From Owenia fusiformis (taxonomy: Eukaryota), in assembly GCA_903813345.2 (NCBI GenBank), contig CAIIXF020000001.1, positions 25,730,001 to 25,794,000 on the forward strand: 64,000 nucleotides of DNA. The letters are read 5' to 3'. The first letter of the stretch is position 1, and every line of letters starts with the position of its first letter. The notes under the pieces were generated by a model. It saw only the letters and a program-made list of their open reading frames with translations. It ran no database searches and was not told the origin of the DNA. Position numbers and translations under genes: made by a program. This document shows, in pieces, positions 1-52,814 of this stretch.

Positions 1-3000
1 AATGGAAGTAACACGTGGCACACAAAACATCGTTCTGCATTTATTCTCATCGTTCCAAAAATGGAAGTAACATGTGGCACACAAAACATCGTTCTGCATT
101 TATTCTCATCGTTCCAAAAATGGAAGTAACATGTGGCACACAAAACATCGTTCTGAATTTACTCTCATCGTTCCAAAAATGGAAGTAACATGTGGCAAAC
201 AAAACATCGTTCTGCATTTATTCTCATCGTTCCAAAAATGGAAGTTACATGTGGCAAACAAAACATCGTTTGCATTTATTCTCATCGTTCCAAAAATGGA
301 AGTAACATGTGGCACACAAAACATCGTTCTGCATTTATTCTCACCGTTCCAAAAATGGAAGTTACATGTGGCAAACAAAACATCGTTTGCATTTATTCTC
401 ATCGTTCAAAAAATGGAAGTAACATGTGGCACACAAAACATCGTTCTGCATTTATTCTCATCGTTCCAAAAATGGAAGTAACATGTGACACACAAAACAT
501 CGTTCTGCATTTATTCTCATCGTTCCAAAAATGGAAGTAACATGCAGCACACAAAACATCGTTCTGAATTTATTCTCATCGTTCCAAAAATGGAAGTAAC
601 ATGTGGCAAACAAAACATCGTTCTGCATTTATTCTCATCGTTCCAAAAATGGAAGTAACATGTGGCACACAAAACATCGTTCTGCATTTATTCTCATCGT
701 TCCAAAAATGGAAGTAACATGCGGCACACAAAATATCGTTCTGAATTTATTCTCATCGTTCCAAAAATGGAAGTAACATGTGGCAAACAAAACATCGTTC
801 TGTATTTATTCTCATCGTTCCAAAAATGGAAGTAACATGTGGCACACAAAACATCGTTCTGCATTTATTCTCATCGTTCCAAAAATGGAAGTAACATGTG
901 GCACACAAAAAAACATCGTTCTGCATTTATTCTCATCGTTCCAAAAATGGAAGTAACATGTGGCACACAAAACATCGTTCTGCATTTATTCTCATCGTTC
1001 CAAAAATGGAAGTAACATGTGGCACACAAAACATCGTTCTGAATTTATTCTCATCGTTCCAAAAATGGAAGTAACATGTGGCACACAAAACATCGTTCTG
1101 CATTTATTCTCATCGTTCCAAAAATGGAAGTAACATGCGGCACACAAAACATCGTTCTGAATTTATTCTCATCGTTCCAAAAATGGAAGTAACATGTGGC
1201 AAACAAAACATCGTTCTGCATTTATTCTCATCGTTCCAAAAATGGAAGTAACATGTGGCACACAAAACATCGTTCTGCATTTATTCTCATCGTTCCAAAA
1301 ATGGAAGTAACATGTGGCACACAAAAAAAACATCGTTCTGCATTTATTCTCATCGTTCCAAAAATGGAAGTAACATGTGGCACACAAAACATCGTTCTGC
1401 ATTTATTCTCATCGTTCCAAAAATGGAAGTAACATGTGGCACACAAAACATCGTTCTGCATTTATTCTCATCGTTCCAAAAATGGAAGTAACATGTGGCA
1501 CACAAAACATCGTTCTGCATTTATTCTCATCGTTCCAAAAATGGAAGTAACATGTGGCACACAAAAAAAAACATCGTTCTGCATTTATTCTCATCGTTCC
1601 AAAAATGGAAGTAACATGTGGCACACAAAACATCGTTCTGCATTTATTCTCATCGTTCCAAAAATGGAAGTAACATGTGGCACACAAAACATCGTTCTGC
1701 ATTTATTCTCATCGTTCCAAAAATGGAAGTAACATGTGGCACACAAAAAAAACATCGTTCTGCATTTATTCTCATCGTTCCAAAAATGGAAGTAACATGT
1801 GGCACACAAAACATCGTTCTGCATTTATTCTCATCGTTCCAAAAATGGAAGTAACATGTGGCACATAAAACATCGTTCTGCATTTATTCTCATCGTTCCA
1901 AAAATGGAAGTAACATGTGGCACACAAAACACCGTTCTGCATTTATTCTCATCGTTCCAAAAATGGAAGTAACATGTGGCACACAAAACATCGTTCTGCA
2001 TTTATTCTCATCGTTCCAAAAATGGAAGTAGCATGTGGCAAACAAAACATCGTTCTGCATTTATTCTCATCGTTCCAAAAATGGAAGTAGCATGTGGCAA
2101 ACAAAACATCGTTCTGCATTTATTCTCATCGTTCCAAAAATGGAAGTAACATGTGGCACACAAAACATCGTTCTGCATTTATTCTCATCGTTCCAAAAAT
2201 GGAAGTAACATGTGGCACACAAAACATCGTTCTGCATTTATTCTCATCGTTCCAAAAATGGAAGTAACATGTGGCACACAAAACATCGTTGTGCATTTAT
2301 TCTCATCGTTCCAAAAATGGAAGTAACATGCGGCACACAAAACATCGTTCTGAATTTATTCTCATCGTTCCAAAAATGGAAGTAACATGCGGCACACAAA
2401 ACATCGTTCTGAATTTATTCTCATCGTTCCAAAAATGGAAGTAACATGTGGCAAACAAAACATCGTTCTGTATTTATTCTCATCGTTCCAAAAATGGAAG
2501 TAACATGTGGCACACAAAACATCGTTCTGCATTTATTCTCATCGTTCCAAAAATGGAAGTAACATGTGGCACACAAAAAAACATCGTTCTGCATTTATTC
2601 TCATCGTTCCAAAAATGGAAGTAACATGTGGCACACAAAACATCGTTCTGCATTTATTCTCATCGTTCCAAAAATGGAAGTAACATGTGGCACACAAAAC
2701 ATCGTTCTGAATTTATTCTCATCGTTCCAAAAATGGAAGTAATATGTGGCAAACAAAACATCGTTCTGCATTTATTCTCATCGTTCCAAAAATGGAAGTA
2801 ACATGTGGCACACAAAACATCGTTCTGCATTTATTCTCATCGTTCCAAAAATGGAAGTAACATGTGGCACACAAAACATCGTTCTGCATTTATTCTCATC
2901 GTTCAAAAAATGGAAGTAACATGTGGCACATAAAACATCGTTCTGCATTTTTTCTCATCGTTCCAAAAATGGAAGTAACATGTGGCACACAAAACACCGT

Positions 3001-48684: not shown

Positions 48685-49685
48685 TACGTTTATACATCTA
48701 TCAGTTTATAGTGTCCCAAAAGTGATGGTAATCATTGGAATATGGATTAGGGAATTGGTGTCATGTAAAAGCTGGATTGAAGCAGGAGTTTACAAAATAT
48801 GGAATTTCCTTTAGGATCATTTGCCATTGCTCTCTTACAATTAAAGTTGAATTAGTTATGAATTATCAGATTATTGTTTTAATTGACTTTTTGCCCATGG
48901 GCCTTTGATTAGGTTTTTACCATTTAGTTTTGGTAAACTTTCTCAGTTATGATGGAATCTTCATGAATTTTGTTACATAATATTCACTCCGCGAAACAGC
49001 GTATAACTTCAAAACATCAACAACTTTGAAATCATGGAGTTTTATTCTGTTGTATGTCTAGGCACAGGCACGATTTAATCTCGAGTCTGATGCTACGTAC
49101 ATGATGTAAGGTATTGTATGTACACCATGATCTCATGCTATACTGAAGATTTCACCTTCATTGACAATGATTGAGGAAGTTATTTCAAAATTAGATAACA
49201 TAGTTTGTCGCATTGTACATGTAGCTGGATGCAAGAGCGCTACCCCAAAAAATTGAGTCATATTGAGGATATTATCATTTTATTTTCTAGTACTAGTTTA
49301 CTGTTTACCAGTAATATTTTAACAATTGAATATGACTGGGAAAATGACAGGAATGCTCTTTACCGGAAACTTTTCACTATTTAGTGAGTATAAACATATG
49401 TTTAAGGACAAAGATATAAGACTTCATTACTATTACAGTAACAGTATGTTGATTTCAAGCTCATAGAATGGAACACATATGAAGCTCCATTGTTACAATG
49501 TTTGCAGAATATATACTGATCACAGAATTTCATATTTTTCAATTTTTTTTAATCCACGCTTTATTGAACTGCAATTTAACAAGCAATTTCAATCAAATAT
49601 AGTGGTGGTGTTTTATATTTTTTTAGGTTTAGTCACTAAAATGTTTGCTTGTTGTACAGTCTCAGGTGGTGATGGCACTGGCAGA

Positions 49686-52271
49686 TTATCGCTTAGACTT
49701 GAAGTACTCATTGAGAACATCCAAGGCCTGTGTTTCTTTGCCATAATCCTGGAAGCACAACATGTTCAAGTTTATATACATGTACATGTTTAATTGTTTA
49801 TTGGTTCATTTGGCAATTTCAACATTTTCTGGATAATTTGGCAAATTAATCATCTTGAAATATTACATAATCATATTTCATAACTGTGTATTGACAATGG
49901 TCTTTAAGTTAAATAGCCATACATAATTTGTTTACTTATCTTTCTTCTGTCTTAGAATTAATACATTCAAAATGGTCTATTGTGAGCTTAAAAGGCAACT
50001 CAGATAAGACTTTGTGAGCTAGTCGGAACAAGTTCTCTTCAGTGTGATATTCACTCAAAGCGAGCTGGGATTATCCATACATCATTGTTGCCTTCAAATG
50101 CTAATAGAAACAATTCCAAACCTTACGGCTCAGATGCTACTATCTCAATGTATACTGACCTTAACAACAACGCAGCTACAGCTAACAACCTTTCTTGCCT
50201 TGCCTTCTTTGTCGATCTTGCAAAGACCAGCCCACTCTCCTAGCTTCTTATTGTCCTCAACCTAAAATGTGAACAAATCCACATTAGTTCAAGATACATA
50301 ACCCTACATGTTAAGAGTAAAAATGATGTTATTCATCCAATATTTTTCACAAATGACCATCTTAAACGTTATAAAGTGAACAGTTTCTGTTCAAACAAGC
50401 TAAATTTTTGTTTGTCCTCAGTGGGGTTCAAGCTAATCCTCATGAATTGTTTATTCAGAAGAGGGAGCATTGTCTTCATCATTGGGCAAACATCCTGACA
50501 AACACCCCAAATATTTGCAAAATGTTTTATCATAACTGGAACACTAAGTGAAAAATAATTCACAAGCATGATATAAATTGGGATTTATTTGTCATATAAA
50601 ATATTTATATAGGCCATTTTAGAGCAAAATGAACCATTGGTGAAAAAACATATGACCAGAAAGTATTAGTTCTAGTTTACCTTCAAGAGGTTGATTCCAT
50701 GTTCAGCACAGAGAGCTTCAACAAGTTTGACATACATGGGTTCGTCACAGTTGTTAGCGAGGATACACAAATGAGCTTGACGCCTAAAATAAAGACAATC
50801 ATGTATTTAGTGAAAACTAAACTGATTCCATTGATTGTTTGAGATCTTCAAGAGTTCAATAGAGACCATTTATTATTAAGCAGACATACATCCAGTACAA
50901 TAGCATTTTGAATTTATGTTTGTCCTCAGTGGGGTTCAAGCTAATCCTCATGAATTGTTTATTCAGAAGAGGGAGCATTGTCTTCATCATTGGGCAAACA
51001 CTATTTGATAATCAAAAATTTTCATGTTGAAGTGTTTTACAAGATTATTTTTCCACAATTCATTGACAACTTGCAAAACGACTGGGTTGTTTGTTGTAAA
51101 ACCTAATAAAAAGGAAGCAATCAAGAGACCACCGTACAGTATCATATAAAATAATACTAATTCACATTAAAATAAGTTTTACCTATGTGCACTAAACCAT
51201 GTGGACTAGGGATTTAGGAAATTTCAGCCATAGCAATTTATGTCAGAATAGCATCAAAATAGAGAGGCAACACATTAACTAGCCAATTCAAGATGCGTGC
51301 GAGTGTATTTTTCCATAGGTCAGAAACTGCACCTTGTTTTGACGGTTTAATTGACAAACAACTCAAATGAAATGTACTCTACAGCAAAATTGTAAATGTT
51401 TGGAACTTCTTTGAATTTAAAAAATAAGCAATCAAATGACTTTATTCCAACGAAAAATGGAAACATATGTACAAGTCCTAACTGAGTTATGTATAATGTG
51501 CAGAAAAGCTGTGGCCTTTTGTAATTTTTTCGAAAACAACATGGCAGAGAAGCATCAAAATATAACAAGCCACAGATATGATAGCTAAACTACAAAACAA
51601 ACGTACACAGGATTTGGCAAGGGGGATTCACTTGCTCAGAATGGTGAAAACTGCATAATTTTGGAAGAATTTTAGGCCAGGGGGATTACGCCCAAACCCC
51701 CCGAACCCCCTTCCTGGCTTCGGCCCTGTACCGATTCAAATAGCGTAAAAATGGATTGGTAGAGTGGTTGTAGCCACAGGAATTCGTTGAGAGTTTAACA
51801 TAAGTCAACAAAACACTAGCACAACATATATCAAACTTACTTGTCAAGTGTCTTAGCACATTCATGGAGACCTCTTGAGAGTCCATCATGGACCATTGCA
51901 TTCTTCAGTACCTCCTGAACAGCTGTGTTCATATCCATTGGGCCAGAGTCGACTGCAACAGGTGCTGCAGCAGCTCCGGCATCATCTCTGTAATGGGAAT
52001 TAATCCATTATCAAATAAACAATACCATCACGTTGTAGGGATTACTCAAACCGATAGATTTTTCCAATAAATGTCACTGAAATTCTGAACGTGGCCCATA
52101 CCAATAATAACTGGTTTGAACCCAAGCAGATGAAATGGTGGATACATTTTACAAACACCATACTGTCACACAACACAATGCAGTATAATACTATTTTAAT
52201 TTCATGTAGAACTCACGAATCTGAATGAAAATGTTTTTTTAAAGAAATTCTTACCCTTCCGCATCAGACAT
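49686..52271 (-). CDS. RPS12: 40S ribosomal protein S12 (eS12), 143 aa
   Basis: Exons 52271-52255, 51987-51841, 50783-50681, 50261-50160, 49748-49686. Protein MSDAEGDD...[51 protein letters not shown]...[39 protein letters not shown] on the minus strand near 49560. Confidence 0.97.
49994..50092 (-). ncRNA. Candidate box C/D snoRNA in the last RPS12 intron, target unassigned
   Basis: Terminal stem GGCAAC/GTTGCC, box C-like ATGATGT, internal CTGA, box D CTGA adjacent to the 3' stem. Confidence 0.6.
50409..50492 (-). ncRNA. Box C/D snoRNA, SNORD100-like, copy 1
   Basis: TGTTTGCCC-A-ATGATGA(C)...TGCTCCCTCTT-CTGA(D')...ATGAGGA(C')...CTGA(D)-GGACAAACA. The D' guide is complementary to the conserved 18S AGAGGGAGC segment. 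Confidence 0.85.
50917..51000 (-). ncRNA. Box C/D snoRNA, SNORD100-like, copy 2
   Basis: 84 nt identical to 50409-50492, in the preceding RPS12 intron. Confidence 0.85.
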
Positions 52272-52426
52272 GTTGGTCAATTTTTGCGGACGTCCTTCTG
52301 AAAATAGACATAACAACACAATATATATGTTGGTTAGTATAAATAAATGGCATAAACTCAAAACAAGTGACCGATGATACACAGAAGCAGAGATATTTTG
52401 AGATATTATGGATTATTTTCACTCAC

Positions 52427-52462
52427 AATGATGCCTGTTAAAATCTTAAACGGAAAAGGAAG
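52427..52462 (-). promoter_or_regulatory. RPS12: RPS12 non-coding first exon with 5'TOP/TCT-like start
   Basis: Minus strand CTTCCTTTTCCG...CATT followed by a GTGAGT donor; matching acceptor near 52298 just upstream of the ATG exon. This is the typical ribosomal-protein gene layout. Confidence 0.7.
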
Positions 52463-52814
52463 TTGCAAGGTGCACGTGATGAATTATGGGAAAATTTAAT
52501 ACTGAGCTACAGGAATACATCCGTATCTTCTTCTCATTTGTAACAGAGGGATGAAAAAGATACGTCTTAATATCATTCACGCGAAAATATTTATTGTTAG
52601 GTATACATTTCAAATGTAAAACAATATAATAAACGTATTCAATAAACCTAATGGTCTGCCCACTTATTTACACTGTACAAAAAAAGAAATAATTCCCCGG
52701 GAACAAAGTATATCTTAACTTCTATATTCTATAAGTGGGCACTGGCGGGTCCAGAAGCTAACAGGCCTTGTTGCCACTTTAAATTGGTAACCGTCGTATA
52801 ATAAAATAATGATT

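Follow-up and report, generated by a model that had tools for sequence, protein, structure and literature searches.

In a 64-kilobase (kb) stretch of the Owenia fusiformis genome (contig CAIIXF020000001.1, positions 25,730,001 to 25,794,000, hereafter the window and numbered from its first letter), two consecutive introns of the ribosomal protein gene eS12/RPS12 carry the same 84-nucleotide (nt) sequence without a single difference. The sequence has the layout of a small nucleolar RNA (snoRNA) of the box C/D class, and we consider it likely that both copies are intron-encoded SNORD100/HBII-429 orthologues that guide modification of the equivalent of G436 in 18S ribosomal RNA (rRNA), the second copy having arisen by cis-duplication. 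The evidence comprises the anatomy of the unit, its position in two spliced introns, the presence of both copies in the DNA of several data sets, and the complementarity of the guide to 18S rRNA. Our results support an earlier, sequence-only account of this DNA (the original prediction) as essentially right, and they describe a further, duplicated example of a well-described snoRNA family in a well-described host.

Extent and anatomy of the duplicated unit

The window contains one direct-repeat family, a 90-nt block that occurs at 50403-50492 and again, 508 nt away, at 50911-51000; the two occurrences differ by 1 mismatch. Its 84-nt core on the minus strand (50409-50492 and 50917-51000) has no difference at all, as evidenced by two 84/84 matches in a blastn search against the whole 64-kb window; no third copy of the core was found in the window, where the next-longest blastn match measures 13 nt. 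Outside the block, the identity of the two flanks drops immediately to 0.15-0.45 (ungapped, in 20-nt bins), and a comparison of introns 3 and 4 with gaps leaves the 90-nt block as their sole common stretch. The identical block begins at the first stem nucleotide and reaches 6 nt beyond the last stem nucleotide, with 5 of those 6 positions matching; the 3' flanks of both copies share [A/T]AAATT. Repeat search, blastn, and flank bins thus agree with the predicted exact 84-nt duplicate between unrelated flanks, and the splice joints seen by RNA sequencing (RNA-seq) place the copies in consecutive introns, as had also been claimed.

The two copies and the elements of copy 1 are as follows.

50409..50492, minus strand: SNORD100-like box C/D snoRNA, copy 1, in RPS12 intron 4, recognized by repeat, boxes, fold, and an Rfam score of 23.2 bits
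50917..51000, minus strand: SNORD100-like box C/D snoRNA, copy 2, in RPS12 intron 3, with all sub-features at +508 and the same Rfam score
50492-50484, minus strand: copy 1, 5' stem strand UGUUUGCCC
50482-50476, minus strand: copy 1, C box AUGAUGA (unit positions 11-17)
50475-50459, minus strand: copy 1, D' guide, a 17-nt spacer ending AAUGCUCCCUCUU
50458-50455, minus strand: copy 1, D' box CUGA
50443-50437, minus strand: copy 1, C' box AUGAGGA
50436-50422, minus strand: copy 1, D-side element UUAGCUUGAACCCCA, 15 nt
50421-50418, minus strand: copy 1, D box CUGA (unit positions 72-75)
50417-50409, minus strand: copy 1, 3' stem strand GGACAAACA

The 84-nt unit is a predicted canonical box C/D snoRNA. 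It has C and D boxes with a terminal stem, internal D' and C' boxes with guide-length spacers and an 11-nt loop between them, and it lies in sense orientation in a spliced intron. Moreover, the minimum free energy fold of the isolated 84-nt unit closes the terminal stem (UGUUUG..CAAACA).

The 5' flank of copy 1 (50493-50515, minus strand) has two features of its own. One is UGUUUGUC, which complements the 3' stem strand of the unit perfectly, and the other is GGGGUG, paired with the D-side ACCCC in the predicted fold. The flank of copy 2 has neither UGUUUGUC nor GGGGUG. These features could affect the processing of copy 1, or they could be there by chance.

The host gene and the positions of the copies

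The host gene is identified as eS12/RPS12 from the translations of its exons, which were recovered from stop-to-stop frames as the eukaryotic S12 protein. Three exon translations match the Pfam family Ribosomal_L7Ae/L30e/S12e in consecutive segments of the profile, and all 37 PDB sequences matched by the largest exon are named eS12 (37/37). The coding sequence of 432 nt gives 143 amino acids plus a stop. Splice joints were taken from RNA run X21, in which CT..AC on the plus strand corresponds to GT..AG on the minus strand. A loose end at 52297 on 1782 reads maps to 52427-52444, whereby the exon of the 5' untranslated region (UTR) and intron 1 were recognized.

49535..52460, minus strand: eS12/RPS12 host gene, six exons (the end at 52460 is approximate)
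ending at 52427, minus strand: exon 1 (E1), 5' UTR exon
52298-52426, minus strand: intron 1, 129 nt, GT at 52426, seen as loose read ends
52255-52297, minus strand: exon 2 (E2), with the ATG at 52271-52269
51988-52254, minus strand: intron 2, 2483 reads
51841-51987, minus strand: exon 3 (E3)
50784-51840, minus strand: intron 3, 1057 nt, 1797 reads, joint 50782>51840 (cut +1)
50681-50783, minus strand: exon 4 (E4), coding, 103 nt, between the two snoRNA-bearing introns, Pfam Ribosomal_L7Ae/S12e at 39.8 bits
50262-50680, minus strand: intron 4, 419 nt, 2447 reads, joint 50259>50679 (cut +2)
50160-50261, minus strand: exon 5 (E5)
49749-50159, minus strand: intron 5, 1907 reads
about 49535-49748, minus strand: exon 6 (E6), with the stop codon at 49688-49686

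Within these introns, the 3' splice site lies 147 nt downstream of the end of copy 1 (intron 4) and 133 nt downstream of the end of copy 2 (intron 3).

Further observations concern the gene itself. A pyrimidine tract, CTTCCTTTTCC, lies upstream in the interval 52298-52470 (minus strand), and we take it to resemble the 5'-terminal oligopyrimidine start that ribosomal protein genes typically have. The 3' UTR has a 5-nt insertion polymorphism (TGGTG) at 49678, present in a contig of DNA run X1 and in 370 of 1915 X21 reads. Single-nucleotide polymorphisms (SNPs) are common in the 3' UTR and in exon 5; an example is 50220 G>A, carried by 1836 of 2757 X21 reads.

Both copies in the DNA of three studies

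Three DNA runs (X1, X2, and X3), each from a different study, were used to follow the duplication beyond the assembly. In the Logan contigs of X1, the 84-nt unit forms a unitig of its own with a depth of 172.9, and the flanks have depths of 64.8, 76.6, 76.6, and 72.5. Overlaps of 30 nt connect the unit unitig with four distinct flank contigs, such that all four junctions between unit and flank are covered. Its depth, at about 2.4 times that of the flanks, fits about two copies, although depth is in itself no copy number. In X2, one 538-nt contig (50463-51000) spans the edge of copy 1, exon 4, and copy 2 in full, and another contig runs from copy 2 into intron 3. X3 covers the low side of both copies. 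Because X1 is possibly the source sample of the assembly, the junctions in X2 and X3 are what provides independent support. The unit/flank junctions in DNA contigs of three studies thus answer the concern, raised with the original prediction, that the duplication might be an artefact of assembly.

No variants were found inside either unit in X1-X3, an absence that is not significant alone, as the two units total 168 nt. SNPs are present in the flanks in these runs, for example at 50497, 50598, 50600, 50644, and 51071-51081.

Probable assignment to SNORD100

In Rfam, both copies score best with SNORD100 (RF00609), at 23.2 bits, and the runner-up family reaches 16.6 bits; the match has an E-value of 0.0041 when 101 nt are searched and of 0.16 when 4 kb are, and cmscan suppressed two lower-scoring matches of the same clan per scan. 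The D' guide GCUCCCUCU agrees with the Rfam SNORD100 consensus at 9 of 9 positions and lies at an equal distance from box D', with one spacer nucleotide and then CUGA. The C' box UGAGGA and the D-side ACCC are also common to the unit and the consensus. The proposed likeness of the D' guide and the C' box to those of SNORD100 therefore held up, by top family, guide, register, and C' box alike. The two facts given with it, that human SNORD100 guides 18S G436 and that it is hosted in RPS12, are both in print.

The published target can be described further from the parts of the cited papers that were available, to which all statements on sources with a PMC identifier refer. In a sponge, the SNORD100 orthologue lies in RPS12 and the 18S target G436 is conserved (Perina et al. 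2012, PMC3412847). The human HBII-429 duplex is printed at the same site as that predicted here and labelled 18S 436 (PMC3116282 supplement).

On these grounds, we call the unit a functional and syntenic SNORD100 orthologue, its function being a prediction and its assignment made with no formal match to RF00609.

Predicted pairing with 18S rRNA

Pairing of the guide was computed on environmental eukaryotic 18S loci from metagenome contigs, fetched by a 21-nt motif located some 20 nt downstream of the target. The motif does not overlap the target, so circularity was avoided. At least 97 loci were fetched, and 94 were used after 3 with less than 70 nt upstream had been dropped; the counts of loci that follow hold among the matches listed.

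Guide positions 1-10 upstream of box D' pair with 18S GAGAGGGAGC, with one G.U at position 1, and guide position 5 then faces the leading G of the GGG within GAGAGGGAGC, at the site that corresponds to human 18S G436. The word AGAGGGAGC occurs at the expected place in 86 of the 94 loci and is preceded by GG in 86/86. The two nucleotides after it are CU in 81 and AU in 5 of the 86 loci. Of the remaining 8 loci, seven depart from the 9-mer by a single change or deletion, and L086 is unrelated there. In the 5 GCAU loci, the duplex has 12 base pairs (bp) instead of 10 because the guide reads UGCUCC, where the vertebrate consensus is GGCUCC.

An 8-nt signature, which we take to be typical of animal 18S, marks 15 of the loci listed as animal-like; these include 5/5 of the AU loci but only 10/81 of the CU loci. 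In 15/15 of them, the best or tied-best match of the D' guide is the G436-equivalent site, with a tie in L006. Shuffled 13-nt guides rarely equal the run score of the real guide on ribosomal DNA (rDNA) of the AU variant (44/5000 for L029 and 27/5000 for L063).

The D-side element may contribute a second contact. Its segment UUGAACCC pairs with 18S GGGUUCGA through 8 bp, including one G.U, and this partner lies 15 nt upstream of the G predicted to be methylated. The pairing occurs in 15/15 of the animal-like loci among the matches listed, with 9 bp in L056 and a weaker form in L092. The commonest word at the partner's place is GGGTTCGATT, found in 61/94 of the listed loci. In the available text of van Nues et al. 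(2011, PMC3116282), HBII-429 is among the human snoRNAs with a conserved extra pairing, which supplementary file 1 of that paper draws as CCCACUGU against 18S GGGUGACG. We regard an extra pairing of the D-side ACCC with 18S as suggestive only.

A proposed mode of action and the origin of the second copy

We propose that each snoRNA copy would be released from its spliced RPS12 intron and processed to a stable RNA. The D' element (AAUGCUCCCUCUU, then CUGA) would pair with the universally conserved 18S segment GAGAGGGAGC; the nucleotide five places upstream of box D' would then face the leading G of GGG, so that fibrillarin would 2'-O-methylate the G436 equivalent. The D-side ACCC may contribute a further contact with 18S, without a catalytic role, a little upstream of the target. 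With two intronic copies, one host transcript could yield two snoRNA molecules.

The second copy would have come about by cis-duplication into the neighboring intron, and the sequence around both copies bears on the manner and timing of that event. Neither copy has an A-tail, copy 2 has no direct repeat of at least 6 nt between its 40-nt flanks, and the sole direct repeat in the flanks of copy 1, TGTTTG, is part of the stem motif. Retroposition as the copying route is disfavored by the missing A-tail and target-site duplication and by the shared 6-nt 3' flank; in particular, a recent retrocopy of the mature RNA is disfavored because these hallmarks are absent and the 3' hexamer is shared. The duplication of an arbitrary DNA segment is disfavored too because the boundaries of the block coincide with the functional unit. 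The original prediction had suggested RNA-mediated copying or conversion between introns. Its RNA-mediated part finds no hallmark of retroposition to lean on, and the evidence inclines instead toward conversion or an event at the DNA level.

Two histories can be set beside each other here. Slightly favored is an older duplicate whose flanks have decayed while gene conversion preserved the identity of the unit, and we put its chances close to, if a little short of, even. That the second copy is simply a recent one is also quite conceivable, if somewhat doubtful, and we assign the small remainder of the probability to neither. A more elaborate history would be that an old cis-duplicate was homogenized by continuing gene conversion between introns 3 and 4 of this single-copy gene, that the U of the guide, where vertebrates have G, coevolved with a lineage-specific C-to-A change in 18S (GGAGCAU) that would lengthen the duplex from 10 to 12 bp, and that the partner of ACCC moved from GGGUGACG to GGGUUCGA. 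GGAGCAU is seen in 5/15 of the animal-like environmental 18S sequences among the matches listed, and we hold this combined scenario to be unlikely, though worth keeping in view.

The extent of the identity bears on function as well. Only one copy might work, probably copy 1 in intron 4, with the other being a very recent, poorly processed or unprocessed, and effectively neutral duplicate. Full identity is what a very young copy is expected to show, the two introns differ greatly (419 versus 1057 nt, the longer one with a high-copy repeat), and intron 4 is the ordinal position of SNORD100 in chicken and mouse, as far as the available parts of those reports go. However, both copies have all boxes and a full terminal stem, their distances to the 3' splice site are similar (147 and 133 nt), both are present without variants in the DNA of three studies, and no sequence feature tells them apart. 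We therefore judge a single working copy to be improbable.

Weighing the assignment

Several observations weigh against the reading of both copies as SNORD100 orthologues directed to the G436 equivalent. The score of 23.2 bits is, for both copies, far under the gathering score of 58 for RF00609, and a scan of the whole window at Rfam gathering thresholds reported zero families. Thus, the Infernal comparison proposed with the original prediction bore out SNORD100 as the best family and failed to reach the family's own threshold. The 18S sequences on which pairing was computed are all environmental. Also, on rDNA of the CU variant, shuffled 13-nt guides equaled the run score in 1290/5000 cases for L011 (10.7 kb) and in 1582/5000 for L056 (10.0 kb). 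The complementarity of guide and 18S is therefore weak evidence by itself against the common CU variant and unusual only against GCAU. For the D-side element, shuffled 15-mers matched the pairing in 81/3000 cases within ±30 nt and in 182/3000 within ±60 nt. In the available part of the human supplement, the extra-pairing partner of HBII-429 is GGGUGACG, which lies further upstream, whereas the best partner here is GGGUUCGA. Finally, the depth of RNA run X21 over the two units falls in bins of 0 and 1.68, compared with 900-3000 on the exons. X21 is an mRNA-type cDNA library, and low depth over the units in such a library speaks neither for nor against a non-polyadenylated 84-nt RNA.

Because complementarity alone is not very strong, the case for SNORD100 rests on a conjunction of the 9-mer, its register, the C' variant, the host gene, and the published target. 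This conjunction is what must be set against the alternative that the unit is a genuine box C/D RNA whose likeness to SNORD100 is convergent or whose main target is another one, either as an orphan or as a guide acting through UUAGCUUGAACCCCA. The subthreshold Rfam score would fit such an RNA, as would a D-side element that is unlike the vertebrate consensus apart from ACCC, and shuffled pyrimidine-rich guides do often find 10-bp partners in rDNA. Yet chance would hardly bring together a 9/9 guide in register, a C' box as unusual as UGAGGA, and the host gene reported from sponges to vertebrates, and we give convergence or another target very little probability.

As for an assembly artefact, mis-assembly is able to generate an exact short repeat such as this one, 508 nt apart, and X1 may be the sample behind the assembly, but the intervening exon is single-copy and spliced to both neighbors by thousands of reads, contigs of X2 and X3 tie the unit to distinct flanks, and the unit unitig has about 2.4 times the flank depth, so that we attach next to no credence to it.

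Other elements in the introns of RPS12

Two further elements lie in these introns.

49994-50092, minus strand: second canonical box C/D snoRNA, in RPS12 intron 5, with stem GGCAAC/GUUGCC, C box AUGAUGU, and D box CUGA
about 51319-51722: hyper-abundant interspersed repeat in RPS12 intron 3, with a summed X1 contig depth of 2x10^4 to 1.8x10^5 and neighbors at about 70

The 5' guide of the intron 5 snoRNA, UAAUCCCAGCUC, equals the consensus of plant snoR69Y, with a score of 17.8 bits versus a gathering score of 45, and the RNA also matches TtnuCD4 at 20.4 bits. In at least 20 of the fetched loci, the guide forms 10 bp with the large-subunit rRNA word GUGAGCUGGG. A variant unitig of 81 nt, which differs in 3 places, has a depth of 388.8 in the DNA runs, compared with about 65 for the flanks, and because of this depth further genomic copies of the intron 5 snoRNA probably exist. 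In the mouse, the same ordinal intron of RPS12, intron 5, hosts the H/ACA snoRNA Snora33, according to the available part of PMC10287158.

The repeat in intron 3 is represented by many variant contigs, with internal joints and low, bidirectional RNA coverage.

Other candidates in the gene were rejected. No SNORA33- or SNORD101-like matches were found at E-values up to 10 in any RPS12 intron. Intron 2 folds no better than shuffled sequence (z of -0.92, with 40/200 shuffles at least as stable), so that an H/ACA snoRNA in it is not supported. Weak Rfam matches to RT-4, SNORD103, TtnuHACA10, ceN63, and similar families were taken as chance.

Comparison with known systems

Earlier work has described cis-duplication as well as the snoRNA family with its target and host, and what this locus adds is incremental on two points. 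First, it is a new data point for one of the most stable associations of a snoRNA and its host in animals. That the pairing of host and snoRNA is deeply conserved, as the original prediction supposed, is correct and already published: the available text of Perina et al. (PMC3412847) traces the association from sponges to vertebrates. The protostomes that this text names, Drosophila melanogaster and Caenorhabditis elegans, are intron-poor, and SNORD100 was not found in their RPS12 genes. If the annelid placement of O. fusiformis is right, a protostome that retains SNORD100 in RPS12 fills the gap left by the intron-poor protostomes of the 2012 survey, at least as the available part of that survey presents them. 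Second, identical intronic copies between random flanks make a small, clean test case for concerted evolution of intronic snoRNA paralogues. A literature search for snoRNA studies of annelids gave none among the matches listed, and one for concerted evolution of intronic host-gene snoRNAs gave only an unrelated match.

Compared with vertebrate SNORD100/HBII-429, the unit shares the box C/D layout, the D' guide GCUCCCUCU in register, the C' box UGAGGA, the D-side ACCC, the RPS12 host, and the predicted G436 target. It differs in the guide, which reads UGCUCC where vertebrates have GGCUCC, and in the D-side element, which is otherwise unrelated and shorter. The chicken gene carries HBII-429, with a 10-nt 5' antisense element, in RPS12 intron 4 and U101 in intron 3 (PMC2653536, available part), and in mouse RPS12, intron 4 holds Snord100 and intron 5 Snora33 (PMC10287158, likewise). 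Copy 1 therefore occupies the fourth intron, as SNORD100 does in chicken and mouse, a likeness of ordinal number alone. Two copies are present here, versus the single copy that the available text reports for chicken.

Sponge and other metazoan SNORD100 genes have the same RPS12 host, a conserved guide, and a conserved 18S target, as described in the available part of PMC3412847. According to the same part, cis-duplication into a neighboring intron is established in nematodes, platypus, and sponges; it is uncommon in mammals (Hoeppner et al. 2009). The cis-duplicated snoRNAs described so far, such as the H/ACA pair in RPL13A of Suberites and the nematode, platypus, and chicken paralogues, were likewise copied to a neighboring intron, and the paralogues are highly conserved. 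The two units in O. fusiformis are 100% identical over 84 nt between unrelated flanks, versus 94% in the sponge RPL13A pair (PMC3412847).

The likeness reaches beyond animals. In clan CL00073, HBII-429 Gm436 has plant snoR30 Gm390 as its counterpart (Hoeppner and Poole 2012, PMC3511168). In the available part of that paper, RPS12 hosting is not reported for the plant snoR30 genes. Plant snoR30 (RF00046) addresses the homologous 18S position (Gm390 in Arabidopsis) and belongs to the same Rfam clan as SNORD100, the family to which we assign both copies described here.

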